NCBI RefSeq assembly: GCF_000253055.1
Contig: NC_016070.1
Coordinates: 1,590,001 to 1,622,000, forward strand
Source: Thermoproteus tenax Kra 1
GTDB lineage: Archaea > Thermoproteota > Thermoprotei > Thermoproteales > Thermoproteaceae
Direction of reading: 5' to 3'
DNA: 32,000 nucleotides
Each line of letters starts with the position of its first letter. Position 1 is the stretch's first letter. Position numbers and translations under genes: made by a program. Positions 15,629-31,993 of this stretch are shown piece after piece. Below the pieces are notes generated by a model. The model was not told where the DNA came from. It ran no database searches and was given only the letters and a program-made list of their open reading frames with translations.

Positions 15629-15878
15629 ACGAGCCCCTCTCCGCCTTAGGCGGGGTCTGTGCTGTGGGAGTCTCGCCCGTTGCTCCTCGCCGGGACTAAT
15701 GGGCCGCTCCTGGCGAGCATCACGGCGGGGCGTCCCCTCGCCTGGGCCCTCGGCCGTTGACCCGCCCTCGCTGTATTGAACGCGCCACTGTTCAAATCTT
15801 TCTTCACTAACTCTGCCATGAGAGGATATAGATGCCGACTTAAATTCATCCCCGCCTTGAGGGATATGGCTTGTTGTT
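15629..15878 (-). mobile_element. Element B: protein-less, hairpin-bounded GC-rich element related to the IS200/IS605-type element at 26907..28251
   Basis: Read on the minus strand: degenerate left-end hairpin (CCCTCAAGGCGGGG), TTTAAG..ATCTATAT, a 15-nt block CAGAGTTAGTGAAGA identical to element C, GCAACGGGCGAGACTCCCAC (15664-15683), and right-end hairpin 15639-15655 followed by GGGGCTCGT. It is collinear with element A over its whole length. Confidence 0.55.
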
Positions 15879-15933
15879 CCCACATGTCGGTGGGGACATG
15901 GGCAAGGAGGGGCCACAAAGGGGTCAAACGGGG

Positions 15934-16347
15934 TCATGTAAGTCTCTTAAGCGCAAAGTTGGTTATAAGCCAAGGGTCGAAATCTCTCTCGGGATAGTAG
16001 GGGAGCCCTCGCGGCAGCGATTTCAAGGCCTTCTCTACCTCCTCCCTCTTTCCGTAGACTGCCACAACATATTCGCTGAGTCCCAACGGCGAGGTGGTAG
16101 CCACCGCGCTCTCTATTGAATCTTGTTGAGTCAAGTACATTAACGCAGATATACGGCTGTCTCTGGCCGGACCCTTCAGCGCATAGGCATACACAAGGGC
16201 TTGGAGCAGATATCTCCAGTCTCTGACGGCCTCGGGCCTCACCGCTATCGCCAACGCGCCGCTTCCCAAAGATGCCAAGATCTCCTTAGTCAAAGGCTCC
16301 GAGCTGACCAGGATCACCTCTATACACATATCGTTGCTACAAATCAC
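15934..16347 (-). CDS. Possible KEOPS subunit Cgi121-like protein
   Basis: 137 aa. The pattern VRPEAV..LLQALVYAYA...ARD..ISALMYLTQQDSIESAV...VVAVYG resembles the Cgi121 core. GTG start with TATA AATATAAAGG ~24 nt upstream. Confidence 0.4.
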   Translation of the reverse strand: MICSNDMCIEVILVSSEPLTKEILASLGSGALAIAVRPEAVRDWRYLLQALVYAYALKGPARDSRISALMYLTQQDSIESAVATTSPLGLSEYVVAVYGKREEVEKALKSLPRGLPYYPERDFDPWLITNFALKRLT

Positions 16348-16465
16348 GCGATTGTGGGACTAATCCCTTTATATTCTTAGAGTTAACCGAAACTTTTCAT
16401 TTACTGATTAATAGAAAGCACGTGGTTATCTGAAAATTTTATTAATCCTAGCAGGTAGAGGTCAT

Positions 16466-17623
16466 ATGAAGATTATCCTTAGGGAGGAGGTCTTCAACCC
16501 CGACTATGTGCCGCCCTCGTTGCCTCACCGCGAAGAGCAGATGAGGCAACTCCTCGCATATATGCGGAACTTTATAGAGAGCCCCGGCTCTTTCTATCCA
16601 CGCGTCGTTTTAGTGGGCAGACAGGGGAGTGGAAAGACGGTCACCTTGAGATCCTTCGGCAAATCCCTCAAACCCCCCGTCAAATTCGCCCACGTCTCCT
16701 GTTTCACCAACAGGACCTTCACGACAATAATCTACAGTCTGGCGCAACAACTGGGCATAGCTGTGCCCAAACGGGGCTTGGGCAGAGACGAACTTGTCAA
16801 TGTCTTTCTCGACCAAATTAAGGAGAAGGATATATATGCTATCATTGCGCTTGATGATGTCTTCAACTTGACGCCAGATATAATCTCAGTCTTCATACGT
16901 ATGGGGTTGGAGACGGACAAAATGGGCGCACACAGGATCGGGCTGGCCTTGGTGAGCCACACGCCCGACTTCATAGACGCCCTCGACCCCTCCACGCGCG
17001 GCATATTGGGAAAACCGCTGGTGAGGTTTCCGCCGTATACTAAGGAGCAGATATTCGACATATTGAAACAGAGGGCTGAGATGGCGCTGGCGCGCGGCTC
17101 CTACGATGAGGAGATACTCTATATGATAGCCGACATTACGGGCGCAGAGGAGGGGCAAAACAACAGGGGCGATGCCAGGTTGGCCCTAGATATATTGTAT
17201 CGTGCCGCCAACGGGGCTGAGGAGGAGGGCTTGAGCCGTATCACTGCCGAACACGTGCGTCGGGCCAGCAAGGAAGTGCTCGTGGGCGTCTCCTCGGACG
17301 TCTTACAAGGCCTTCCTCTACACGCTAAGCTGCTGCTCCTGGCCATAGTCAGAGCTCTTAAGAGGGGCAAGCCCTATGTGACCTTCGGCGAAGTCGAGGA
17401 TATGTACAAGATATTATGCGAGGAGTTCGGCCAGAGGCCCAGAGCCCACAGCCAGCTGTGGACGTATCTAAACGAGCTAAAGAGCAAGGGGATAGTCGAG
17501 ACTAGGCCCAATAAGCGCGGTGAAGGCCTGCGGGGACGCACGACTTTGATATCGATAGGCACAGAGCCTCTCGATGCCTTGGAGAGGACTATCTCGGCAA
17601 TGGCTATGAACGAGCTCAGATGA
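16466..17623 (+). CDS. orc1/cdc6: Orc1/Cdc6 replication initiator
   Basis: Walker A GRQGSGKT, Walker B IIALDDV, AAA+ lid and C-terminal winged helix. 385 aa. Confidence 0.9.
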   Translation: MKIILREEVFNPDYVPPSLPHREEQMRQLLAYMRNFIESPGSFYPRVVLVGRQGSGKTVTLRSFGKSLKPPVKFAHVSCFTNRTFTTIIYSLAQQLGIAVPKRGLGRDELVNVFLDQIKEKDIYAIIALDDVFNLTPDIISVFIRMGLETDKMGAHRIGLALVSHTPDFIDALDPSTRGILGKPLVRFPPYTKEQIFDILKQRAEMALARGSYDEEILYMIADITGAEEGQNNRGDARLALDILYRAANGAEEEGLSRITAEHVRRASKEVLVGVSSDVLQGLPLHAKLLLLAIVRALKRGKPYVTFGEVEDMYKILCEEFGQRPRAHSQLWTYLNELKSKGIVETRPNKRGEGLRGRTTLISIGTEPLDALERTISAMAMNELR

Positions 17624-17910
17624 CCGATGCAGATTTCGTGTTGGGGGCAAAAACTAGGATCAAGATAATACGCGAGCTATATAAATTGGCCGAGACCAAC
17701 ACCACCGATCTAGCGCGCAGGCTCGGCTTGAGCTACAACCAGTTGGAGGTACACTTGAGGATACTTAGGGAGGCTGGGATAATAGAGGAACACAGGATCG
17801 GGAGAGTCCGGTTGGTCTCTCTGAGGAGGGAGCCCGAGGTGTTGGAGCTGGCCAAGGCCATATCTAATCTGGCGCAGCTGTTAGAGCGCACCAAAAAGGC
17901 TAGCTCCTAG
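17620..17910 (+). CDS. ArsR-type winged-helix transcription regulator
   Basis: 96 aa. RIKIIRELYK..TTDLARRLGLSYNQLEVHLRILREAGII is a typical wHTH. The start overlaps the orc1 stop (ATGA). Confidence 0.65.
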   Translation: MTDADFVLGAKTRIKIIRELYKLAETNTTDLARRLGLSYNQLEVHLRILREAGIIEEHRIGRVRLVSLRREPEVLELAKAISNLAQLLERTKKASS

Positions 17911-19174
17911 GAAGGATATTCTTTATGTCTGTGGGAGATATAGATAGAGCTCTGCTAAGTTTGTCAAGTATTGTGGGATCCTTCTTAGATAAAACGGAGA
18001 GTATTTGTAGAATCTCCGAGGCCACATAACTGCTTGATAAATGAAGCTCCTTGGCCAAGTGTTGTACTACTAGGTCTTTCCTCTTCCTTGCCTCCTTAGA
18101 TTTAGCCAACAAGAGTATCCGTTGAGGGAATTGATATTTGAAGAACCTTGGAAGGCGCGGCTTCCCAGGCACCAGCGCGACGCCCGCCAACATAAGCTCC
18201 GTCATGTACGGCATGAGCTCCCACTCTCCCGTCCTCTTTATGTGGGACAGAATGATATCGGCCTTGCTTAGACGATCTAAGGCGGCCGCTGCCACATGGG
18301 GATCCTTGTACACTCTGGGCACATTCTCGGCGGCCCAAGCGAAGAACTGCTCCCAGTCGAACGAAGGCGAAAACGATATAGCCCTGGCCTCATCGAACCA
18401 GTTAGCTCTGAAGACTTTATCCAGCACCTCGAACATGGACAGCTGTGGATTCCGCTCTCCGATCCGCCTTATATCATCTATGGTGAGGACGCCTTTGCCC
18501 TCAGCGAATAGTTGGAGGTCGTTGATGGCGGCTCTAAGGTCTCCGTTTGACGAGCGCGCGAGAGCCCTCAGAGCGTCCTCCTCGCACTTGATCTTCTCCG
18601 TTGAGCATATCCTCCTCAACACCTCTACTACGTCCTCCTCGTCCAACTTCTTTAAGTTGACCACATAGCTTATTTCTCTCAGTGGGCGGAGCCTCTGATC
18701 GTAGGGATTGTTGGCAGTCATTATAATGGGCACACGGGCCGTCTCGATCATGTCCACGATAGAGTCTAGGCCTCCTAGGTCCTCCTTGGGGTTAAGCCCA
18801 TCTACCTCGTCGAATAACACAATTCTGCCCGAGTAGCCGAAGAGGGAGCCCTCCCTGAGCCCTCTACCCACCACCTCTTTTATCCTAGCCGAGGTACGGA
18901 CGTCGCTTGCGTTCAACTCTATTAGTTCATAGTTTATCTCGTTGGCTAGCGCGTGTACCAACGTGGTCTTGCCCACGCCGGGCGGACCTGCCAGAAGTAT
19001 CGATCTAGCCTCCAAGATCTCTTTGTCCTTGCTTCGGGCCCACTGTCTACAAAAGTGTTCAGATACCTTAAATTTGGCGCAGACCCAAGAGGCTAGGGCA
19101 TATTTGGCCTGCTCCTGGTCTACTATATCCTTGAAACTACGCGGACGATGCTTCTCGACCCACGGCAACATCAC
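17900..19174 (-). CDS. rfcL: Replication factor C large subunit
   Basis: [16 protein letters not shown] and FDEVD motifs. 424 aa. 4-nt overlap with rfcS. Confidence 0.9.
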
Positions 19175-20157
19175 CTCTTTTTCGTCTGTACCCTAGCTCT
19201 CGCCCCAAGGGCAGCCAGTTTGACTAACATGTAGGTCAATTGAAGCTCCTCGTCTGAGCCCTCGACCAATCTGAGGTCAACGTCAGCTAGGAGCTCCGCC
19301 ACAGCGGCCTTGGTCTCCTCGTCTATCTGTAGCCTGGGTAACTCCCTCTGTAGCGCCTTCAATATGTCGATGCCCGCGATGCCCCTCATGTACATGAGAT
19401 CCCTCAGCCTCTCCCTTGCCTTCTCCACATCGCCCGAGAAAGCGAGATTGAAAATCTCGAGGATCTCGCTCGGCTTCGCGGCGGAGGCCACTGCGGCGAC
19501 GCTTTCTTTATCTACCACGCCCGCCGAGGCTGCGGCCATCTGTAGTAAATTTATTGCTCTCCTCATGTCGCCCTGCGATATCTCGTAGATCGCGTCTATA
19601 CCGTCCTCAGTGAGCTTTATCCTCTCTTGACTTGCTATATATTGAAGGCGTTGGGCCATCAACGGCTTAGGCATGGGGGGGAACCTAAATACAGCGCATC
19701 TCGACAATATAGGATCTATGATCCTAGACACGTAGTTAGCCAACAGAACGAACCTGGTGGTCGCCGCGTACATCTCCATTATCCTCCTGAGCGCCTGCTG
19801 CGCGTCGGAGGTCATGTTGTCCGCCTCGTCCAATACGACCAGCTTGAAGGGGGCTCCGCCGGCCGGCGCAGTTCTGGCGAACTCCTTGACCCTCTCCCTT
19901 ATCACGTTTATCCCCCTCTCGTCGGACGCGTTGAGCTCCAGCGTGTTCTCGCGCCAGCGCTCCCCGTAGAGCTCCCTCGCGAGCACCAGGGCGGTCGTAG
20001 TCTTGCCCGTGCCGGGCGGGCCGTAGAAGAGGAGGTGGGGCATGTTGCCGGCCTTTATGAACTCCGCCAGCCTGGCCTTTATCTCCTCCAAGTCCACTAT
20101 CTCGGCGAAGGACTTGGGGCGGTACTTCTCGAACCAGAAGAGCTCGCCTAGAGACAT
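19171..20157 (-). CDS. rfcS: Replication factor C small subunit
   Basis: [25 protein letters not shown] and SRC motif ([10 protein letters not shown]). Closely resembles Pyrobaculum-type RfcS. No intein. Confidence 0.95.
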
Positions 20158-20197
20158 AGAGCAGATAACTGTGAGTAAATAAATGGACTAACGCGTA

Positions 20198-20875
20198 TTA
20201 TCTCGAGGCCGCAGCCAGGCGTTCTAGCTCGTCCTTATGCCTTATTGCGTAACTCTTGGGGTCGTTGGATGCCGCAGCTATTATCTCGTCAGCGAGACAT
20301 TCCTCAATAGGCTTTGGATTGTTAAACGAGCATGCGCGGGCGCCTTCGGCTATCCAGTGGAGCGCCAGATCTAGCCTTCGTTGGGGCGAGACGTCCACAG
20401 AGACGGAGTAGGCGATACCGCCCATTATAATGCGCGTTATTTCCTCGCGGGGGGCCGCGTTTATTATAGCATCGATGTACACTTGTAGAGGATTCCTCTT
20501 AGTTTTATAATAAATTATGTCGAATGCCCTTTTCACTATGTTGTACGCCTTATGCTTCTTGCCCGCGTTTCTTCCGGGCCTCATCATTAGGTTTATTAGA
20601 CGCTCCACTATGGGGATCTGCGTCTTGCCGAACCTCCTATTCTGGAATCTGCCCTCTGTGTGCGGAAGAAGCACCGGCTTTAGGCAAATATATCTCCTCA
20701 ATCCAGGATCTTTCACTACTATATCGTCGTAAGTCCATTTGCCGAACAACAAGATTTGGCCTCCATCGTAGGTCCTAATAGCGCGGGGACATTCCTCAAC
20801 TAAGGGGACGTCCCCCACGTACTCAACGTGAGATCCCTTAGGCAATTGCTCGCCGAATATGATCGGCGAAGACAT
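20198..20875 (-). CDS. rps7: 30S ribosomal protein S7 (uS7)
   Basis: The archaeal uS7 pattern (LFGKW..., [39 protein letters not shown]) is present. TATA GTTTAAATATAG lies upstream. Confidence 0.85.
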
Positions 20876-21170
20876 CAGTGACCAACTTACAACTATATTT
20901 AAACCTTAACGCCAAGTCTCGCCAAAGCCGGGGACCTCGCTCTTCAAGCGTTATCCGCCCGCCGTCTGTGCCACTGATAAACAAATTGATATCTAGTAGA
21001 AAAATGTAGTGGAATTACTCCTTTTCTATTAATCGTTGATCATTCTATAAAAAATACTTAAAGAAAAATAGGGAGCTATTCTTTTTATAATATACTAAAT
21101 AAATCAATAAAAAAATTCCAGCATTCTATTTTGCACGAAAAGCTTATAAATATCTGTTTTTATCTAGCAT

Positions 21171-21338
21171 ATGCCGCAGAAGCTGAAGTTCTACGACATA
21201 AAGGCCAAGCAGGCGTTCGAGACAGACAAATACGAGACCGTCGAGAAGAACACCGCCAGAGGCCCCATGATATTCGCGGTCGCCACTTCGCCGTACACCG
21301 GCATTAAGGTCTGGAGGCTGATCGGCAAGAAGAAATAA
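21171..21338 (+). CDS. 55-aa basic protein, candidate CC1-type crenarchaeal chromatin / DNA-binding protein (below the ORF-track size cutoff)
   Basis: ATG..TAA ORF encoding MPQKLKFYDIKAKQAFETDKYETVEKNTARGPMIFAVATSPYTGIKVWRLIGKKK. About 6 kDa, net basic, beta-rich composition. TATA CTTATAAATAT lies ~22 nt upstream of the ATG. Size, charge and taxon fit the CC1 protein described in Thermoproteales. Confidence 0.5.
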   Translation: MPQKLKFYDIKAKQAFETDKYETVEKNTARGPMIFAVATSPYTGIKVWRLIGKKK

Positions 21339-21341
21339 GAA

Positions 21342-21932
21342 TCAATACAAACTGTTTTTTCTCTCGCTTTCCCAAAATTCTCTTCCGGCGCTTGCCAATA
21401 TCTTGGCGACACGTAGCGGCTCGGGTTTGTTCCCGTACTTCCTCGTCAAAGCGGCCAGTCTGAAGGCGTCTCTGGGGCTTAGGCCCCAGGCTCTGACGAA
21501 GACCCTCCCGCCGTCGGGGTATCTAAACTCTACCGGATTGCCCATCTTAGAGATGTTCTGCCACCTGATCTCCCAGTCGTCGAATATCTTCATCAGCGCA
21601 CTTTTTATGTCGCCCTCGGGCTCCTCAAATACATAACATACGGTGGGAAGCCCCGTTTCTCTCCATACAATTTCGCCGTCTATCCAGTTATAGAAAGAGA
21701 CTATACATCCGTCCAACATTATTACGTGGACGTCGGGCCTTTTTATCCGCCTTATTACTTCGAGGGCGACTTGGGTCCCGTCGGTCCCGCCCAACTTGGC
21801 CCTCCCAAACGCCGCAGATTCTATATAGCCGTCTCTCCTGGCCAAGACGGCGGCGTATATCGAATATCCCTCATCTAATCTGAAGCTTTCCGCGACCGCT
21901 ATCGTTCTGAAGTTCTTCTGCAACCAACTCAT
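21342..21932 (-). CDS. DUF99 (UPF0215) family protein (endonuclease V-like fold)
   Basis: 196 aa. TIAVAESFR...GGTDGT...VHVIMLDGCIVSFYNWIDG...GLPTVCY matches the DUF99 pattern. Confidence 0.65.
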   Translation of the reverse strand: MSWLQKNFRTIAVAESFRLDEGYSIYAAVLARRDGYIESAAFGRAKLGGTDGTQVALEVIRRIKRPDVHVIMLDGCIVSFYNWIDGEIVWRETGLPTVCYVFEEPEGDIKSALMKIFDDWEIRWQNISKMGNPVEFRYPDGGRVFVRAWGLSPRDAFRLAALTRKYGNKPEPLRVAKILASAGREFWESERKNSLY

Positions 21933-22852
21933 CTGATGTATAGTTTGAAGGTATCGTTAACTCTTCTTATGGCCCTCCTCGTGCATAACAGAGCGCAGGC
22001 CCCGCAGCCTGTACAGCTCTCCAACAACTTGGGAGCTCCGCCTTTGTCCATAGCCAAGGCGTCGCACGAGGACAGAAAACAATCGCCGCATCTATCACAT
22101 AGGGACGGCTCCACTTCGAACTCACCCGCGAATAGCTTATAGTCGTAGCCAACGACTCTCTCTCTAAACAGCCTACACGGATCCCCCCTTCTATTGATAT
22201 CAACTATATAGCCTCCTAGCTCTATAAACCCATCGTCTGTGCCGCCCGTAGAGATGGCTATGACCGGGCCGGCCTTATAGCCGCCTATTAATATGCCCTT
22301 GGCTATCGCCACGGCCGGTATGGGCGGCATATGGACTGAAACAATTTCGCTTACGGCGTCCGGCATAAAGTACGTCGGAAGGACTTGATAGTCGGTCTTC
22401 TCCTCAACGGGGCTCTTCATGTATATATCGGACACAACTATTGGGACATCGTCCCTAAGCTTCAGCAAGTTATAGAGACAGGCAAAGAGGGGCAGATACT
22501 CCCTCCCGGCGCCCCCTGTGCGAACCCATCGCCGCGCCCTCAAATAGTTTTTATTGAACGTGGAGACTCTAAAGGGCCTGGGCAACGGCTCCTCTCCCTC
22601 GTATCCGATCGGGCTTTGGGTCTTTTCGGAGAGAGCTATTGCCTCCTCTAGGTCTCTAACGCAGGGGAGCTCCTGCGGGCACGGAGAGAGGAGCATGGCT
22701 CCCCAGATCCCCGATCTTCTCACGATGTCGATCCACTCATTGCGGAACTCTCCCAGCACCAATACCCTCCTAAATGTGATCGAGAGGCCGAGGGCTATGC
22801 CCAGAGCATGGAGGTTGCCCAGCTCCTTGCCCTTTATCACAAACTCTATCAT
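21929..22852 (-). CDS. Hypothetical protein with a C-terminal 2x[4Fe-4S] ferredoxin-like domain
   Basis: Two cysteine motifs, CDRCGDCFLSSC and CTGCGACALLC, in the last 60 aa. The N-terminal ~240 aa are not recognised. Overlaps both neighbours by 4 nt (operon). Confidence 0.6.
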   Translation of the reverse strand: MIEFVIKGKELGNLHALGIALGLSITFRRVLVLGEFRNEWIDIVRRSGIWGAMLLSPCPQELPCVRDLEEAIALSEKTQSPIGYEGEEPLPRPFRVSTFNKNYLRARRWVRTGGAGREYLPLFACLYNLLKLRDDVPIVVSDIYMKSPVEEKTDYQVLPTYFMPDAVSEIVSVHMPPIPAVAIAKGILIGGYKAGPVIAISTGGTDDGFIELGGYIVDINRRGDPCRLFRERVVGYDYKLFAGEFEVEPSLCDRCGDCFLSSCDALAMDKGGAPKLLESCTGCGACALLCTRRAIRRVNDTFKLYIR

Positions 22853-23349
22853 GGAACTAGCCGCAGCCTAACGACGACCTTCATCAGCGCCTTTTTCTCC
22901 GCCGGAAAGTCATCTAAGGGCCTTGGACCGTTCTGTCTCACCCAGAGGCAGTTCTCAGACAAGAATACGTTGCCCGTCTTTACGTCGAGCACGAGGGGGA
23001 ACATCTTGCAAGCCAGAGGCTTTTTCTCGTGTATCGTGCATTTTCTACTCTTTCTGTCGAAAAAGGGGCACCACCCATCGATTATCCATCTGTAGATCTC
23101 TACTCCGTTAACTTCGCCGAGCCTCTTGAAGCTCAACTTGAGCCCCCTCCGCTCGGCCTCCTCCTTAAGTCTAACCATCTCCTCATGGAAGATGGTAGGC
23201 ATCTCCTCCTCTGATTCAAAACGGCAACAGTCCGCGGGACACCCGATGGGACATTCAAACGGCACTGCACAGTTTTTAAAGCTGTTTATAACCGTAAGCC
23301 TCGCCCTTAGGGCGGAGTGGGGGTTACAACAGAAAGCCCCGCCCTTCAA
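22849..23349 (-). CDS. YkgJ-family (UPF0153/COG0727) Cys-cluster protein
   Basis: CPIGCPADCC plus CPFF..KCTIHEKKPLACKMFP motifs. The track start (TTG 23349) lies inside the left-end hairpin of element A. The alternative start GTG 23265 (MPFECPIG...) has TATA TTATAAA ~22 nt upstream. Confidence 0.7.
   Translation of the reverse strand: MKGGAFCCNPHSALRARLTVINSFKNCAVPFECPIGCPADCCRFESEEEMPTIFHEEMVRLKEEAERRGLKLSFKRLGEVNGVEIYRWIIDGWCPFFDRKSRKCTIHEKKPLACKMFPLVLDVKTGNVFLSENCLWVRQNGPRPLDDFPAEKKALMKVVVRLRLVP
23290..23323 (+). repeat. Solo left-end remnant (second tandem copy of the element end)
   Basis: TTTAT-AACCGTAAGCCTCGCCCTTAGGGCGGAG parallels TTAC-AACAGAAAGCCCCGCCCTTCAAGCGGGG immediately downstream and the left ends of element C and the TnpB IS. 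Confidence 0.5.
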
Positions 23350-23580
23350 GCGGGGATGGATTTAAGCTATATTTTTTCATGGCGGAGCGGTGAAGAGAGC
23401 TGAGGAAGGCTTAAATAGCGGTGCGCGCCATAAGACGGGGCGGGCCAACTTGCATCAACTCGTAAGATGGCCCTGGCGGGGGGACACCACAATGCCTGCT
23501 CCGTCGCGGCCCATAACCCCGGGCAACGGGCGAGACCCCCACGGTGGAGACCCCGCCCTTTAGGGCGGGGAGGGGGTCAC
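23328..23580 (+). mobile_element. Element A: protein-less, hairpin-bounded GC-rich element of the same family
   Basis: Starts after TTAC (23324-23327). It contains a left hairpin (23337-23355), TTTAAGC-TATATTTTTT, CATGGCGGAGCGGTGAAGA, GGGCAACGGGCGAGACCCCCAC (23521-23542), and a right hairpin CCCCGCCC-TTTA-GGGCGGGG (23551-23570). It ends GGGGGTCAC, as the TnpB IS ends GAGGGTCAC. Confidence 0.6.
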
Positions 23581-23930
23581 ATGCTTCCCGTCCGCCCTTG
23601 GGCACTCGCCCCAATAAATATGAGGGGGGCGCGGGAGCCCTAATGGGGCGCCATCGTTGCTTTCAATTACTGCATGCGCCTTTGCTCTAGATATAAACTG
23701 GCTTGAGGCCTAAGTAGTGCTAAATTCCTGTTATTATAGATCTTTGTAAAATATATTATTTACTTTTGTTTCTATATCTATATCTAAGACCATTTACCTA
23801 TTCCGCCTTCTCTGTAATTTTTTGAATATAATAATTAATTTTTTAAGTTTCATAATCTCTCGTTACGTATATAAATATTACTTTATAAAAGGTTGGAGAA
23901 AAGTTTAAATCTAAGCTAAATCGTTAACTC

Positions 23931-23981
23931 ATGCCCAAGAAAGAGCAGAAGAAGGAGGAGAAAAAAGAGCAGAAGAAGTGA
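23931..23981 (+). CDS. Candidate 16-codon leaderless micro-ORF (MPKKEQKKEEKKEQKK)
   Basis: ATG..TGA with TATA-like AAGTTTAAAT (23901-23910) centred ~25 nt upstream, the same spacing as bona fide genes in this window. It lies in a ~470-bp gene-free gap. No homology recognised. Confidence 0.25.
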   Translation: MPKKEQKKEEKKEQKK

Positions 23982-24030
23982 AGGCCTAGGCTATATAAAA
24001 ACGGAACTCTCTTCTTTTAACCTCCTTTTT

Positions 24031-24083
24031 GGGCGGGCCAGCCGCGTGTCAATAGCTGACACAGGCGAGGGGGTGTCGGGCTC
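24031..24083 (+). ncRNA. Candidate small structured RNA between two TATA boxes upstream of rpl14e
   Basis: A GC-rich 53-nt block sits in AT-rich surroundings. TATA CTATATAAAA (23991-24000) lies ~30 nt upstream. It has a hairpin GTGTCA-ATAGC-TGACAC (24046-24062) extended by GCC/GGC. rpl14e has its own TATA downstream at ~24087-24097. Confidence 0.2.
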
Positions 24084-24116
24084 TAAATTTTAAAAACACT
24101 GCCCTTTGCCCCATGT

Positions 24117-24422
24117 ATGCCTAAGGTGATCGAGGTGGGCAGAATAGTTGTGAAGGTCTCTGGCAGAGAGGCCGGGAGAAAGGCCGTAGTCGTGGATCTA
24201 GTTGATGAGAACTATGTCGTAATCACAGGCCCGCGCAGCGTAAGCGGCGTAAAAAGAAGAAGGGTGAACATAAACCATATAGAGCCGACGGACAAGAAGA
24301 TAGATATAAAGAGGGGGGCGAGCGATGAGGACGTAGTAAAGGCGCTTGAGGCTGCCAACTTAATCGAATACATGAAAGAGAAGATAAAGCCAAAATTCGA
24401 GGGGGTTTTATCGGAGATTTAA
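24117..24422 (+). CDS. rpl14e: 50S ribosomal protein L14e
   Basis: KOW-like VGRIVVKVSGREAGRKAVVVD. 101 aa. Leaderless spacing to TATA ATTTTAAAAA. Confidence 0.9.
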   Translation: MPKVIEVGRIVVKVSGREAGRKAVVVDLVDENYVVITGPRSVSGVKRRRVNINHIEPTDKKIDIKRGASDEDVVKALEAANLIEYMKEKIKPKFEGVLSEI

Positions 24423-24430
24423 GGTGCTTT

Positions 24431-25122
24431 ATGACCGCGCTCCCCGCCCTAAAGGGCGGGGTTTCCCCTCGCCCACGCCTTCATCGGCATCCAGGATACC
24501 TCCGGCGCGGGCTCATCGGGCATGGGGCCGGGCGGCGCTCGGCCCTCCTCGGGGCAGAGCACCTCATTTGGTGAGGCGTGTGCGCATATTGGGTCTTCCG
24601 CCTGCATCTGCGACGACCCCCGCTCATGCGGGATCCGCACCGTGGGGGTCTCGGCCGTTGCCCTCCTCGGGGTTAATCCGCTCGACATCGGATAACGGGC
24701 CTCTATCCTCCCCGGCGCTCTGAGGCCGGCCCTCGCGGCGTTCAGCGCGACGTTGAGCCTCCTGCGGAGCACGAGCCCTCTACAGCCCCGTACGTCGACT
24801 ACGTGCTCGCTCTGCCGCCCGTGCGCTACGTCCTCGGGTATCCTGCGTATACCTCAGAGACCCCCGATTCCCGCAACATCCCGGCGAGCCCTCTGACCGC
24901 CGTATTTCGATAGTGCCTCAACCTCTACCATCCTCCAGAGCGCCTTTAGGTAGAGGCGGCGCCACCCCGCTCATTGCCGATGCCGCTCTTCGTTTTGCCC
25001 CCGCGTGGCGCCCGCCCTTGCCCCTCCCTCTCCTTTCCTCGGTCCTCTTCACTAACTCTGTCATAGAAAAAATATAGATGTTCGGCTTAAAACCTACCCC
25101 GTGAAGGGCGAGGCTTTCGGTT
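24431..25122 (-). mobile_element. Element C: 692-nt composite protein-less element filling the whole rpl14e-cbf5 spacer
   Basis: On the minus strand it starts after TTTAC (25127-25123). It has a left-end hairpin remnant, TTTTAAG..ATCTATAT, and CAGAGTTAGTGAAGA (25046-25060, identical to B). An internal right-end-like block GGGCAACGGCCGAGACCCCCAC (24642-24663) plus a hairpin follows. The last 182 nt resemble the tnpB 3' end and right end of the intact IS. The terminal hairpin is 24442-24461 and the element ends GGTCAT (24436-24431). All ORFs inside are R/P/G/A-rich and not protein-like. Confidence 0.6.
25067..25077 (+). promoter_or_regulatory. TATA box (AAAAAATATAG) inside element C, facing outward and driving cbf5
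   Basis: It is centred ~25-30 nt upstream of the cbf5 GTG (25101). The same box in the same position relative to the element end is found at 23367-23377 (minus strand) upstream of the ykgJ TTG. Confidence 0.6.
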
Positions 25123-26117
25123 GTAAACGAGATATTTATGTAAAGACGCCAAATGAGACAACCGACCCTCAATGGGGCAGGCCGCCCGCCGATAGGCCGA
25201 TCGAAGAATACATAAGATATTCTTTTGTAGTACTGGACAAACCGCGCGGCCCCTCGAGCCACGAGACAGTCGCTTGGCTCAAAAGAATCTTGAACGTGGA
25301 GGTCGCAGGCCACTCGGGCACTTTAGATCCCAACGTGTCTGGGGTCTTGCCTGTCGCCATCGCCGAGGGCACCAAGGCGCTAATGGCCCTCTCTAGAGCC
25401 GACAAAACCTATGTCGCCGTCGCCAAGTTTCACGGAGACGTCGACGAGGCTAAGCTGAGGGAGGTTCTCGCCTACTTCACAGGCGCCATTTATCAGAGAC
25501 CGCCTCTAAGGTCTGCGGTCAAAAGACAACTCCGCGTGAGGCATGTGTACTCCTTGGAGCTACTGGAGCTGGACGGCAGATACGCGCTCCTCAGAATGCA
25601 TGTAGAGGCGGGGACCTACGCCAGGAAGCTCATCCACGATATAGGCGAAGTGCTGGGCGTGAGCGCCAACATGAGAGAGCTGAGGAGGGTCGGAGTCGGG
25701 TGTTTTACAGAGGAAGAGGCCTTCACGCTACAGGATATAGCAGATGCAGTATACATATGGAGGAACTACGGCGATGACACTGTACTGAGGCAGATAGTGA
25801 AGCCCATAGAGGAGATAGCAAGAGGGGTCGCCAAGATCTGGATAAAGGACGGCGCCGTAGATGCTGTGTGTCATGGCGCTCCTCTGGCGGCCCCCGGCGT
25901 CGTCAAGTTCGAGGAGCCCTTCCAGAGGGGCGACCTTGTTGCATATTTCACGCTCAAGGGCGAGCTAGTCGCCCTGGGGAGGGCCTTGATGTCCAGCGAT
26001 GAACTGAAAAGAGCGGACAAAGGGCTTGTGGCTAGAACAGACCGCGTTGTCATGCGGCCCGGCACCTATCCCTCAATATGGAGGAGAAAACCTAATAAAT
26101 TAGAGGGAAGATCCTAG
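25101..26117 (+). CDS. cbf5: H/ACA RNP pseudouridine synthase Cbf5 (TruB family) with C-terminal PUA domain
   Basis: [11 protein letters not shown] catalytic Asp motif. [19 protein letters not shown] is collinear with archaeal Cbf5 N-termini. PUA-like C-terminus. The GTG start and first 7 codons lie inside the left end of element C. Confidence 0.9.
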
Positions 26118-26119
26118 AG

Positions 26120-26413
26120 GTGGATCTGCCGGTCAGACGCGTGGTTATAGACGCGGCGATCCCAACGAAGAACGTATCTATTGTGGACGTAGCCAAGTCG
26201 CTCTATGAGACCAGAGGCGTCAAGGCCGTGAGAGTTATCGTGGACGATGTCGACGTAGATGTCTTGGGGCTGATAGTGGTGGTCGAAGGCGAGGGAGTCG
26301 ACGTTAAGGAGATACAAGACGCCATAGAGAAAGTGGGCGGCGTCGTGCACTCATTGGACGAAGTTGTAGTGGGAGAATACATCCCAGAGGTGCACGCACA
26401 AGAGGGCGCTTGA
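26120..26413 (+). CDS. DUF211 family protein
   Basis: 97 aa. RRVVIDAAIPT...IVDVAKSL...GVKAVRVIVDDVDVDV..L.IVVEGEGVD matches the DUF211 pattern. GTG start 2 nt after the cbf5 stop. Confidence 0.65.
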   Translation: MDLPVRRVVIDAAIPTKNVSIVDVAKSLYETRGVKAVRVIVDDVDVDVLGLIVVVEGEGVDVKEIQDAIEKVGGVVHSLDEVVVGEYIPEVHAQEGA

Positions 26414-26910
26414 GAAGATACGTAGTACTAGGGCTACTAGATGGAATTATCACCGCCGTCAGCTTGACCTCGGGCCTGCTAGTAAGAGGCCACGCGTTGC
26501 GCATCAGCGAGGCGCTATCGATTGCAGTGGTCGTGGCTACGATAAATTCGCTCACGAGCTTTATAGCCGAGTACTCCCATCAAAGGGATCTGCTCAGAGA
26601 CCTTGAATACAAAGTGTATCTAAAATCAACTGGACATATTTTTAAAACGCTGGTACATAGGAGGGCTCTGTTCAACTCAGCCCGCTCGTCTCTGTATAAC
26701 TTCCTCTCGTCGGCTGCGGGCGCTCTATCGGTGTTGGTGCCCGCCTCGGTCAAAAGCGAATACGGCCTGTATGCCCTAGCCGCAGTGGCTTTTCTAGTAT
26801 CAGTTGTATTGTCTAAGAACCTAGTCGAGTTCGGGGAATGGCTTCTGATGGTGTGCGTCTCTGCGCTGATAGGGCTGGCGGTAGGTCTCCTCTTCCCCTT
26901 AGCTGTGTGA
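26410..26910 (+). CDS. Short VIT1/CCC1-like membrane protein
   Basis: VVLGLLDGIITAVSLTSGLLV N-terminal motif and hydrophobic C-terminal helices. Its TGA stop (26908-26910) lies in the terminal nucleotides of the TnpB IS. Confidence 0.5.
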   Translation: MRRYVVLGLLDGIITAVSLTSGLLVRGHALRISEALSIAVVVATINSLTSFIAEYSHQRDLLRDLEYKVYLKSTGHIFKTLVHRRALFNSARSSLYNFLSSAAGALSVLVPASVKSEYGLYALAAVAFLVSVVLSKNLVEFGEWLLMVCVSALIGLAVGLLFPLAV

Positions 26911-27100
26911 CCCTCTCCCCGCCCTAAAGGGCGGGGCTTCCCCCGTTCACCCGGCCTTTGCGGCTCGGGCTCATGTGGGGGTTCTGGGCGGGGTCACGGC
27001 GCCCCATCCCCGGCCTCTCGTTAAGGCCAGGGCTATGTTGATCGCCGCGTTTAAGTCTCTGTTGTATCTAAGTCCACATCTTGGGCACCTAAACTCTCTA
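26891..27100 (-). ncRNA. Predicted omega (right-end) RNA of the TnpB element, including ~16 nt of flanking guide
   Basis: Inferred by analogy with characterised TnpB systems, where the RNA spans the tnpB 3' end, the right-end hairpin and the flank. Here that covers the GC-rich tnpB 3' end, hairpin 26917-26936 and flank 26906-26891. The 5' limit is arbitrary. Confidence 0.3.
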
Positions 27101-28251
27101 CCTTTCACCTCATCAACGGTGAATCCGCACCTATGGCATGTTCTACTGGTGTTCTTCGGCTTTACGTACACAATCGGTATTCCGCTGAGGAGCGCTTTGT
27201 ACTCAATGTACTTCTGGAGCTTCCTAAAGCTCCACGAGTGCAACCTCCTATTCAGTAGTTTGTTGTCTCCACTCATCCTATCTCTAATCCCCTCTAAGTC
27301 CTCCATGACGATGACTGGTTTGGGGAACTGCTTGGCATACTCAACAACCCCCTTAGCTATTTCGTGGAGCATCTGATTGACTGTTCTGCCCTCCTTACTG
27401 CCAATCCTCTTAACCAGGTCAAGTCTCTTCTTTCTCTGCAGGCTACGCCTAATGTGAGCGTATTTGCCGCGCACAAACCTAATCCTCTGCCCACCCCAGA
27501 ACTGCCCCCTCATTGGCCTGCTCGGGCTGTCCCTAGATATGGCCGCGGCCGCAACTGCGTTCCACTCGCCGAGGTCTACGCCTATGAGCGTCTTCGCCTC
27601 CTCAGCACCGTAGGTGACAACGTTCTTCTTAATCTTGAAGTGAGCGAACCAAACGCCGTCTCTCTTAACCAGCTCCACACTGTCGAGCTCCCACAGCCCC
27701 TGCAGGGTCTCCTCAATGAACTGCTTCTGTCTGCTACCGAAAGCTAGTGGTAGCGCTATCCTAACACCTCTTCTCAAGCTAACGACAAGCCAGTAAGGAG
27801 TTAGCTTAGTGCTGGACTTATCGAGCTTGAACGCCCTCCTATCTAGACGAATAGATACCCTCTTAACCGCTGGCCTATCAGCCTTGGCTCTGCCCTCTGC
27901 CTTACGCTCACTAAAGCTCTTGAGAATCTCAACGGCCTTGTCCCTCGCAGTCTGTATCAGCGCAGTGTTTAGGCTAAACCTCTTTTTGGCTTCCTCATAC
28001 GTTAGCTCGTGAAGCTTCGTCTTCGACGTGATGCCGAAGCCCACATACCATCTAACCAACTTGAGGTACTCTTCAAGAGCTCTGTTGAGCTCAAGGGTCT
28101 TGCCCTTGTTAGGCTCAATCACCTTTCCAACAACCGTGAGAACGACCGAGGTCATAGGGGAACATCCCCTCATAGATCGAGTTCAACGGTCAACCTAAAA
28201 GCTTAACGCCGCATAGTGCCATCCCCGCCCTAAAGGGCGAGGTTTTCAGAT
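26907..28251 (-). mobile_element. IS200/IS605-family insertion sequence carrying only tnpB (IS1341-like), 1345 bp
   Basis: Left-end hairpin at 28223-28242, preceded on the minus strand by TTAT (28255-28252). Right-end hairpin CCCCGCCC-TAAA-GGGCGGGG at 26917-26936, followed by the terminal GGTCAC (26912-26907). No tnpA and no terminal inverted repeats or target duplication, as expected for this family. Confidence 0.8.
26971..28173 (-). CDS. tnpB: TnpB (IS605 OrfB-type RNA-guided endonuclease), apparently intact
   Basis: RuvC-I D (IGVDLGEWN), RuvC-II E (VIVMEDLEG), Zn ribbon CHRCG..(x13)..CPRCG, RuvC-III D (YNRDLNAAINIA). The probable true start is the second Met (MTSVVLTV, 28155). Confidence 0.9.
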   Translation of the reverse strand: MRGCSPMTSVVLTVVGKVIEPNKGKTLELNRALEEYLKLVRWYVGFGITSKTKLHELTYEEAKKRFSLNTALIQTARDKAVEILKSFSERKAEGRAKADRPAVKRVSIRLDRRAFKLDKSSTKLTPYWLVVSLRRGVRIALPLAFGSRQKQFIEETLQGLWELDSVELVKRDGVWFAHFKIKKNVVTYGAEEAKTLIGVDLGEWNAVAAAAISRDSPSRPMRGQFWGGQRIRFVRGKYAHIRRSLQRKKRLDLVKRIGSKEGRTVNQMLHEIAKGVVEYAKQFPKPVIVMEDLEGIRDRMSGDNKLLNRRLHSWSFRKLQKYIEYKALLSGIPIVYVKPKNTSRTCHRCGFTVDEVKGREFRCPRCGLRYNRDLNAAINIALALTRGRGWGAVTPPRTPT

Positions 28252-28255
28252 ATAA

Positions 28256-28650
28256 CGAAGACGGCGCGGGAAAGAGGAACTAACGCCAGAGCCCAAGCAG
28301 TCGTTAAGAGGGGCAGGTCTCGCCCGACTTCCGGCACCGAAACTCTAGTGAGACTAATTCCAGCGAGGTGGCTCACCTTTGGATTTCTATTCTCGCACCA
28401 CATCTGACTTTCAGGGCCGAGATAGGCCGGATGGGGCGCGAAAAAGCGCGGGACAATTGAGAGAGCCGCGGACGGGGGAGGTAATGAAGAGGGAGTATTT
28501 ATCCGTCCGCTCCGGCGCGACCGGTCTCCCTCGCCTCTGCTACGTCCGTTGAGGCGTCCAGCGGGGATAGGCTCGGGGCCCTCAGAGGGGCCGAGCGCCG
28601 CGAGGGCTCCAGAGGCACGCTGTCTTTTTAAACATCCCCGAGGGCAGTTC
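28256..28650. other. GC-rich, highly structured non-coding island of unknown function (candidate ncRNA gene or fourth decayed family member)
   Basis: About 390 nt with no credible ORF. It contains many local hairpins, e.g. GCGGACGG..27 nt AU-rich loop..CCGTCCGC (28468-28510) and GCTCGG..CCGAGC (28571-28596). On the minus strand it has a TTTAAAAAG TATA box at ~28626-28634 next to CCCTCGGGGATG, which resembles the left end of element B. Confidence 0.3.
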
Positions 28651-31472: not shown

Positions 31473-31919
31473 ATGGAGTTCCCCGATATAGAGCTGAGGG
31501 CCCACACAGGTGAGACCGTGAGGCCTAGGTCCTTTGAAAGGGCTGTAGTATATTTTTTCCCAAAGGCGTTCACATCGGGATGCACGCGCGAGGCCATACG
31601 ATTCAACGAGCTCTACGATGAGTTTAAGGCCTTGGGCGTGGAGATCTTCGGGATCTCTACAGATAAAATAGACACTTTAAGAAAGTTCGCCGAAAAGTAC
31701 CAGTTGAAGTTCAGATTGTTGAGCGATGAGGGAGGAAATCTGGCGAGACAGTTAGGCATACAGAGGCCCAGCGGCTCGGCCGAGAGGGTCACTTATATCT
31801 TGGAGAGAGGGCGCGTGGTGGAGGTTCTTCGCAATCTCAGAAGCGCCGATCAACACGCAGATAGAGCACTGGAGGTCGCCAGAAGGGCGTTCAAGGCAGG
31901 CGGACCCGGTGGGATTTGA
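31473..31919 (+). CDS. bcp: Peroxiredoxin, Bcp type
   Basis: FPKAFTSGCTRE peroxidatic-Cys context in a thioredoxin fold. The last 19 nt overlap the convergent tRNA-Arg. Confidence 0.85.
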   Translation: MEFPDIELRAHTGETVRPRSFERAVVYFFPKAFTSGCTREAIRFNELYDEFKALGVEIFGISTDKIDTLRKFAEKYQLKFRLLSDEGGNLARQLGIQRPSGSAERVTYILERGRVVEVLRNLRSADQHADRALEVARRAFKAGGPGGI

Positions 31920-31993
31920 ACCCACGACCTACGGCTCTCGGCGGCGCCGGCCACCGCAGGCCGCCGCTCTGATCCAGGCTGAGCTACGGGTCC
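31901..31993 (-). tRNA. tRNA-Arg(GCG) with a 17-nt canonical (37/38) intron
   Basis: Minus strand: GGACCCG-UA-GCUC-AGCCUGGAUCA-GAGC-G-GCGGC-CUGCGG[UGGCCGGCGCCGCCGAG]A-GCCGU-AGGUC-GUGGG-UUCAAAU-CCCAC-CGGGUCC-G. 93 nt = 76 + 17. Confidence 0.85.

Follow-up and report, generated by a model that had tools for sequence, protein, structure and literature searches.

Gene-less transposable elements bounded by the left and right hairpins of tnpB/tnpA elements have been described as palindrome-associated transposable elements (PATEs; Dyall-Smith et al. 2011, PMC3119063; PMC10055086). Insertion takes place 3' of a tetranucleotide and leaves the target unduplicated, the right part that they retain is the guide-RNA (omega-RNA) region of TnpB, and they often encode omega-RNAs that need a TnpB from other elements in trans (Meers et al. 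2023, PMC10055086). Here we describe a cluster of comparable elements in a stretch of 32,000 nucleotides (nt) from the genome of Thermoproteus tenax Kra 1 (contig NC_016070.1, positions 1,590,001 to 1,622,000; in the following 'the window', numbered from its first nucleotide). The cluster comprises one intact tnpB insertion sequence, element T, the gene-less units A, B and C, the last of which is a composite of C1 and C2, and a fragment D (Table 1). A first-pass annotation had taken A, B and C for possible stand-alone omega-RNA-like genes, which next to a single tnpB would resemble a primitive multi-guide arrangement. Our analysis points in a different direction: the locus probably consists of one intact tnpB element and of no fewer than five older, decayed relatives without genes or in fragments (A, B, C1, C2 and D), which are transposon relics and not a multi-guide system. 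A, B and C1 are most likely relics because only the terminal hairpin, the short core motif AACGGGCGAGACC and the termini remain of their right parts, and since T appears to be a recent and independent arrival, the cluster is best pictured as a transposon graveyard at favoured target sites.

The resemblance of A, B and C to PATEs lies in the absence of genes, the bounding hairpins, the mode of insertion and the part that is retained. What sets the T. tenax copies apart is their small number, their age and their degeneration, with an unrecognisable scaffold and with no tnpA or matching tnpB seen nearby. The genome paper of T. tenax lists only five transposase open reading frames (ORFs) or fragments and no repeats of the PATE type or of the type of miniature inverted-repeat transposable elements (MITEs; PMC3189178). 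IS1341-type tnpB genes have been described to give rise to RNAs from their 3' end (Gomes-Filho et al. 2015, PMC4615843), and the same study reports an expressed, PATE-derived intergenic RNA in which left and right ends are fused, finds a 'RE-like' (right end-like) tetraloop also in the HgcC family, and cites intergenic repeat RNAs of Pyrococcus abyssi that are similar to tnpB 3' ends. The sotRNAs and VNG_R0052 of Halobacterium (PMC4615843) thus parallel the T. tenax cluster in both respects, as RNAs from IS1341-type tnpB 3' ends and as intergenic fusions of left and right ends. In the related Rfam family sot0042 (RF02656) the hairpin is in essence that of the T. tenax units, with the consensus CccCGCCCUUcAGGGCGggG as compared to CCCCGCCCTTTAGGGCGGGG in T. 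tenax, but the host phylum is a different one and the match is confined to the hairpin (14.7 bits against a threshold of 88).

Two further systems are close. HgcC (RF00062), a family of high-GC non-coding RNAs of hyperthermophilic archaea, ends in a terminal hairpin, AGGAGGUCAG and a 3' tail that is unpaired, and has an extra small hairpin just 5' of the terminal one, as found in A, B and C1. The matches, which fall on the right ends, are nevertheless all below the gathering threshold of 50 bits (A 31.7, with a local E of ~1e-5; C 23.9; T 21.7), B gives no match to any Rfam family, and the middle 44-48 nt of the model are missing, so that A, B and C1 are incomplete by this model too. ISDra2-type TnpB with its omega-RNA (Karvelis et al. 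2021, PMC8612924; cryo-electron microscopy structure, PMC10097598) is a characterised counterpart of T, which likewise has an intact TnpB with RuvC and Zn-finger motifs, a structured RNA that overlaps the 3' end of the gene and stops at the right end, and a conserved tetranucleotide at the left end. T differs by belonging to an archaeal clade (with TTAT) whose TnpB is distant from that of ISDra2 (E ~6e-9). The first-pass annotation knew of no described Thermoproteales element with such a module; since omega-RNAs of PATEs (PMC10055086) and PATE-derived non-coding RNAs with the RE-like tetraloop shared by HgcC (PMC4615843) have been published, this kind of element is already known, from PATEs with omega-RNAs and from the HgcC and sotRNA families.

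Table 1. Features of the tnpB-related cluster of T. tenax, in window coordinates
Feature	Position	Strand	Description
Element T	26907..28251	-	intact tnpB-only IS200/IS605-family (IS1341-type) insertion sequence; hairpins 28223-28242 and 26917-26936
tnpB	26971..28155	-	394 amino acids from ATG 28155; longest ORF, from 28173, 400 amino acids
TTAT target tetranucleotide (transposon-associated motif, TAM)	28252..28255	-	5' of the left end of T
Omega-RNA scaffold of T	26907..27057	-	covers the last ~29 tnpB codons and the right end
Predicted guide of the T omega-RNA	26891..26906	-	ACAGCTAAGGGGAAGA, flank 3' of the right end; by position only
Element A	23328..23580	+	253-nt gene-less PATE-like derivative; left hairpin 23337-23355, right hairpin 23551-23570
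Fragment D	23290..23327	+	solo left end after TTAT (23286-23289); hairpin 23300-23317; A inserted into D
Element B	15629..15878	-	250-nt gene-less derivative, internal layout as A; most decayed copy
Element C1	~24598-25122	-	larger deletion derivative; left end, N-terminal remnant, weak TnpB C-terminal remnant
Fragment C2	24431..24597	-	T-like right-end fragment, outer right end of composite C; perfect hairpin 24442-24461

The tnpB element T and its omega-RNA

That T encodes an intact TnpB, as first proposed, is borne out by its domain content and catalytic motifs. The protein, annotated in T. tenax as CCC82480.1 / WP_167828122.1, matches the Pfam domain Cas12f1-like_TNB (PF07282, E=2.2e-24), can be aligned to solved TnpB/Cas12f chains, and carries the motifs GVDLGE, MEDL, NRDLNA and CxxC..CxxC intact at invariant columns of the family alignment (the RuvC-like D-E-D triad and the Zn-finger). 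Among 595 homologues, the closest one outside of T. tenax-like samples is 66% identical. Cbf5 of the window is 100% identical to that of T. tenax Kra1, and a neighbouring protein of 137 amino acids is, like the TnpB, recorded on the 1.84-Mb T. tenax chromosome. For comparison we fetched 80 metagenomic loci that encode TnpB relatives of 54-65% identity; fetched loci are referred to below by L numbers where they have to be told apart.

Both ends of T are marked by where conservation stops. The 3' ends of 54 relatives align well through ...GCTCAC and diverge immediately thereafter, which places the right end at 26907. On the other side, TTAT is found at the aligned left-end position in 54 of 71 related loci, with conservation starting after it. 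The left end is set at 28251 because a copy of the first 1161 nt of T in Pyrobaculum neutrophilum (L095 9556-10716; CP001014 ~1047643-1048803), 97.7% identical at the DNA level, begins there, exactly after TTAT. In this copy tnpB is frameshifted (125 + 242 amino acids) and the omega-RNA and right end are lacking; it adjoins a CRISPR-Cas module of type III. The sequences that flank T on either side are unrelated to each other. Neither T nor the related loci have a tnpA beside tnpB; in these loci the left end is situated ~100-150 nt upstream of tnpB. Viral contigs scanned with the TnpB protein gave no match.

T is the sole member of its 90% cluster in the T. tenax genome. Because it is single-copy and has a 97.7% identical copy in P. 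neutrophilum, in spite of the hosts' Cbf5 proteins being only 73% identical, the element seems to be recent; the near-identical copy indicates a recent horizontal spread, and T itself is thus probably a recent horizontal arrival in T. tenax. It appears to have inserted into the last codons of the ORF 26410..26910, since this ORF ends in ...PLAV* here and in ...PLGI* in L089; its stop codon, TGA at 26908-26910, falls within the right end of T. Between the left end of T and the next gene lie ~390 nt of GC-rich DNA (28252-28640), where the spacer of relatives measures 28 nt. This stretch was considered as a further relic and dismissed, as no element or fetched locus is significantly similar to it.

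The last ~150 nt of T are well supported as the TnpB omega-RNA and carry the signature expected of one. A covariance model (R1) was built on this part of the element from 54 non-redundant sequences of the clade, in whose alignment 22 of 31 base pairs show compensatory changes. The clade structure consists of a hairpin within the coding region, a long-range helix (GTGAnC with the terminal GnTCAC), two more helices and the terminal hairpin. R1 recovers T with 123.9 bits (E=1.5e-37), and the minimum-free-energy fold of T matches the consensus structure (z=-4.98). One further R1 match in the window, at 2126-2201 on the minus strand (11.9 bits, E ~0.01), lies within an ORF of 458 amino acids on the plus strand and was set aside as chance.

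T, bounded by its subterminal hairpins, inserts 3' of TTAT. By analogy with characterised TnpB systems, its transcript would run ~16 nt into the flank, so that ACAGCTAAGGGGAAGA is the inferred guide of the omega-RNA. TnpB and guide would then cut the TTAT-flanked empty site and thereby restore the element, while movement itself would need a Y1 TnpA from elsewhere.

Anatomy and insertion history of the gene-less units

The units are tied together by a 20-nt palindrome, CCCCGCCCTWWAGGGCGGGG, which occurs exactly in the right hairpins of A and T and in the hairpin of C2, and with one mismatch in the left hairpin of T; in 100 shuffles of the window no match was expected by chance. Decayed versions are seen at 15639-15655, in D and in the left hairpin of A, and some of them are weak local matches to R1. 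All seven sites of the palindrome that had been listed at first are thus present. Their pairing into four units and the coordinates of these units hold, although the hairpin at 23300-23317 belongs to fragment D and not to A, and C has proved to be composite. The shared sequence blocks are likewise as originally reported: B and C have the 15-nt CAGAGTTAGTGAAGA in identical form, and the 20-nt core GCAACGGNCGAGACNCCCAC has exactly three exact occurrences in the window, one each in A, B and C. The termini of A and T read GGTCAC, that of C GGTCAT and that of B GCTCGT.

Some searches with these sequences led to coincidental matches. The family-specific 20-nt pattern of A, B and C yielded only five matches in the GTDB representative genomes, all of them in GC-rich bacteria and judged to be chance. 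An exact match of the left-end block in L027 and one of the start of the left end in L084 lie within unrelated coding sequence and were rejected for the same reason. Logan assemblies of T. tenax-like runs break exactly within the 20-nt hairpins (L001 1-20, 880-906; start of L093), which would fit a hairpin that is dispersed as a repeat in that genome.

At the left, A, B and C share the order TTAC|AAC(A/C)GAAAGCC, hairpin, TTTAAG, TATAT, ATGGCRGAG..GTGAAGA, with the exception that B itself is preceded by TGGG. These left ends are homologous to that of T, and resemble more closely the ones found in L075, L056 and similar relatives. As the corresponding region of relatives consists of a TATA-like box and the tnpB start, the TATAT box is a former tnpB promoter and the ATG a former start codon. 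The right parts of A, B and C terminate in a T-type hairpin and terminus.

In A, which follows directly on TTAC (23324-23327), the left-end profile matches with E=6e-4, and the TTTAAG/TATAT box, a remnant ATG at 23380 and a 22-nt block (23521-23542) are present. D is 92% identical to the left end of C and 90% to those of L075 and L056. The ~145 nt after A (23581-23725) are specific to T. tenax and probably represent the rest of an older element D. B resembles A with ~70% identity, including indels, over 125 nt, and its left-end profile match is faint (E=0.12); between B and the upstream gene lie 55 nt of T. tenax-specific DNA (15879-15933). C1 contains the 22-nt block at 24640-24661 and a decayed right-end hairpin at ~24603-24620 (CCCGC-ATGA-GCGGG, then GGTCGT), and its left end is preceded by TTAC (reverse complement of 25123-25126). 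The rule that a TTAC- or TTAT-like tetranucleotide precedes the left ends consequently applies to A and C1 (TTAC) and to T and D (TTAT), but fails for B. From their layout and similarity, A and B probably go back to one deletion derivative that transposed later.

Traces of protein are faint. The internal ORFs of A, B and C have no Pfam match, in keeping with the initial view that these units hold no credible ORF, yet two stretches qualify that view. In C, HVVDVRGCRGLVLRRRLNVALNAARAGLRAPG has the proper position and strand and can be aligned with TnpB at its Zn-finger/RuvC-III end; outside of T, no stretch of the six-frame translated window matches the TnpB profile better, but the statistics are weak (E 0.04-1.2). 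B has a 57-codon in-frame remnant, MAELVK|KDLNSGAFNTARAG..., which looks like a fusion of the first six codons with the RDLNSAINIA motif and is suggestive only; A has a remnant of the same layout with a frameshift. A comparison of DLNSGAFNTARAG with RDLNSAINIA, tried in order to prove from the protein level that A and B derive from tnpB, remained anecdotal and gave no significant match. The idea that C is an IS200-type element with tnpA was also abandoned, as no such protein occurs in the translations and Pfam is empty.

Comparison with sister Thermoproteus genomes shows A, B and C to be insertions of this lineage. The clearest case is C. The genes for L14e and cbf5 abut in four Thermoproteus contigs and are 678 nt apart in T. 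tenax; deleting exactly 24431-25122 joins GGTGCTT to TGTAAACG, and the resulting junction, GTG CTT TGT AAA CGA GAT ATT TAT GTA AAG, is an in-frame cbf5 start that resembles VSICSREIYVK of the relatives. Because exact excision restores this start, both ends of C and the TTAC rule are confirmed. B lies within an insertion of ~305 nt, and the two genes that flank this insertion have an overlap of 4 nt in the relative L091. The region of D and A together with the ~145 nt that follow is absent from the relatives L087 and L089, with less exact boundaries. Together with the homology of the left and right ends, these empty sites uphold the proposal that A, B and C are non-autonomous IS200/IS605 derivatives. 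A is nested in D, C1 adjoins C2, and T is near; this suggests repeated insertion at TTAC/TTAT sites, some of which were made by earlier elements.

The insertions have also left their mark on adjacent genes. The cbf5 ORF of T. tenax begins at GTG 25101, within the left end of C, so that seven codons are element-derived, and a TATA-like sequence (AAAAAATATAG) lies on the plus strand ~25 nt upstream of this GTG. As cbf5 of relatives directly abuts L14e, C seems to have replaced the start of cbf5 and probably its promoter. The right end of B is 1 nt from the ATG of an NfeD-like gene.

State of the guide-RNA scaffold and competing readings

The question of whether A, B and C still encode omega-RNAs turns on the region next to their right ends. 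Run without filters, R1 detects nothing of A, B and C but the terminal hairpin, with 7-9 bits and E-values of 0.08-0.4 (hairpin of A 8.5 bits; C2 9.2 bits), and a sequence profile likewise stops at this hairpin. When the units are forced onto the clade alignment, a procedure that makes the result alignment-dependent, A keeps 13, B 9, C1 14 and C2 15 of the 31 pairs, as compared to a clade mean of 29.9 and to 9-12 in their own shuffles; base pairing of A, B, C1 and C2 beyond the terminal hairpin is therefore at chance level. A consensus fold of the three gene-less sequences has a covariation term of 0.02, which means that the compensatory changes among copies that a covariance model might have revealed are not there. 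Folded singly, B (z 0.23) and C1 (-0.97) do no better than shuffled sequence; A reaches -3.2 and C2, whose fold shows a P3-like helix, -2.6. Apart from the terminal hairpin and the terminus, A, B and C do retain the motif AACGGGCGAGACC, whose counterpart in the clade, AACGGGAGAAGCC, hardly varies. Some 15 extra nt beside the hairpin are moreover common to A, B and C1, and in A and C1 they pair with the terminal GGGGGTC. The notion that the units keep a promoter-like box and the right-end RNA scaffold is accordingly half true: the left-end box and a region adjacent to the right end are there, but the scaffold is unrecognisable. Judged by these models, the scaffold of A, B and C has most likely decayed, and they would no longer work as guide-RNA scaffolds.

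Intact units of similar design exist elsewhere. Among the fetched loci, R1 detects orphan matches away from any tnpB in L011 (178-321, 116 bits), L016 (4332-4479, 108.7 bits) and L037 (1549-1693, 116 bits), and weaker relics in L025, L036, L086 and L057. The first three, from hydrothermal and sediment metagenome contigs, are gene-less units of 255-280 nt (L011, ~45-321; L016, 4225-4479; L037, 1549-~1830 on the minus strand) in which a left end (only partly present in L016) and a TATA-like box are followed by a start codon with about ten codons and by a complete scaffold up to ...TCAC. L011 and L037 follow on TTAT and L016 directly on the right end of a neighbour; L011 and L016 have nearly the same junction sequence. 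Three intact orphan units imply that a gene-less combination of left end and omega-RNA is a recurrent product of this TnpB clade, and A and B show this architecture in a decayed state.

We therefore picture A, B and C1 as internal-deletion (PATE/MITE-like) derivatives of related elements, in which the left end, i.e. the former tnpB promoter and first codons, would have been fused to the tnpB 3' end and right end. These derivatives have transposed, as insertions placed after TTAC and at times into one another, and their scaffold would have decayed since. The opposite view, that A, B and C still function as omega-RNA genes of their own, read from the promoter in their left end, which the single TnpB uses in trans, or which TnpB homing at least maintains, can draw on the promoter-like left end fused to the omega-RNA region, on the intact orphan versions of the same design in other genomes, on the stable fold and sub-threshold HgcC match of A, on the retention of AACGGGCGAGACC, the terminal hairpin and the GGTCAC terminus, and on PATEs, whose omega-RNAs are often used in trans (PMC10055086). 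We consider it unlikely: helices beyond the hairpin are at chance level and do not covary, the folds of B and C1 resemble those of shuffles, and the TnpB of T seems to be a recent import whose own RNA is strongly unlike A, B and C. The 16-nt flanks of A, B and C, which would be their guides, have no other match in the window at up to 3 mismatches. With the scaffold most likely decayed, T apparently imported recently and no secondary guide targets in the window, the multi-guide arrangement suggested at the outset is not sustained.

A different kind of function would be that the relics persist as co-opted, cis-acting parts of gene expression and not as guide RNAs. The start of cbf5 inside the left end of C, with AAAAAATATAG upstream, in a place where the genes of relatives abut, speaks for it, as do the position of the right end of B next to the ATG of the NfeD-like gene and the stop codon (TGA 26908-26910) supplied by the right end of T. 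These effects could nonetheless be a mere consequence of the landing sites; they leave the family as such, and A and D in particular, unaccounted for, and promoter use is deduced from sequence features only, so that we regard co-option as possible but doubtful. It is very unlikely that the GC-rich units are independent small-RNA genes or repeats like repetitive extragenic palindromes (REP), for example non-coding RNAs of the HgcC type, without any relation to transposition. Their high G+C content, stable hairpins and sub-threshold HgcC matches would fit such genes, and overexpression of a PATE-derived RNA improved the growth of Halobacterium (PMC4615843), but the ends are homologous to those of the tnpB element, the target sites are TTAC/TTAT, the insertions are nested and lineage-specific, and HgcC itself bears the right-end hairpin of IS1341.

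Several observations weigh against regarding the gene-less units as mere decayed relics. R1 was built from the clade of T only and may not test the scaffold of A, B and C1 fairly; since HgcC has its small hairpin at the position of the ~15 extra nt, these three units may stem from a sister lineage that R1 models poorly. A also folds better than its shuffles (z=-3.2) and has a significant, if sub-threshold, match to HgcC. Conservation is higher in the 22-nt block and in the left-end block than in the remainder of the units, a hint of some constraint, and protein remnants, with E-values of ~0.04-1, give only weak backing to a descent from tnpB elements. Finally, further copies of A, B and C, an intact parent or a tnpA may be located elsewhere in the T. 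tenax genome. It nevertheless seems quite improbable that A, and perhaps C by way of its T-like right end, is still transcribed from its left-end promoter as a short HgcC-like RNA that the TnpB of T, or another TnpB encoded elsewhere in the genome, could load.

Implications and minor features of the window

If an RNA from A or C were loaded by TnpB, this would be a case of crenarchaeal gene-less elements retained by trans-acting, RNA-guided homing; alternatively, such RNAs could have acquired, by co-option, the role of targeting the junctions at L14e/cbf5 or NfeD. Under the relic interpretation, which we prefer, the current picture of how TnpB systems function is unchanged. The analysis then brings to light a small family of IS1341-type relics that had not been annotated in T. 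tenax before; for an archaeal TnpB clade that is widespread, it also yields an omega-RNA model backed by covariation, and TTAT as the target motif. The recurrence of gene-less elements of ~270 nt in this clade is useful for annotation and for the choice of TnpB/omega-RNA pairs.

An H/ACA RNA or another known RNA beside cbf5 was considered and dropped for want of support from Rfam. Upstream of L14e, at 23932-23982, there is a 16-codon micro-ORF rich in Lys and Glu (MPKKEQKKEEKKEQKK*), the position and composition of which are conserved in L087 and L089. A tRNA gene, to which ARAGORN assigned no anticodon, lies on the minus strand at 31899-31993; it matches Rfam with 56.8 bits and contains a 20-nt intron in the anticodon loop.

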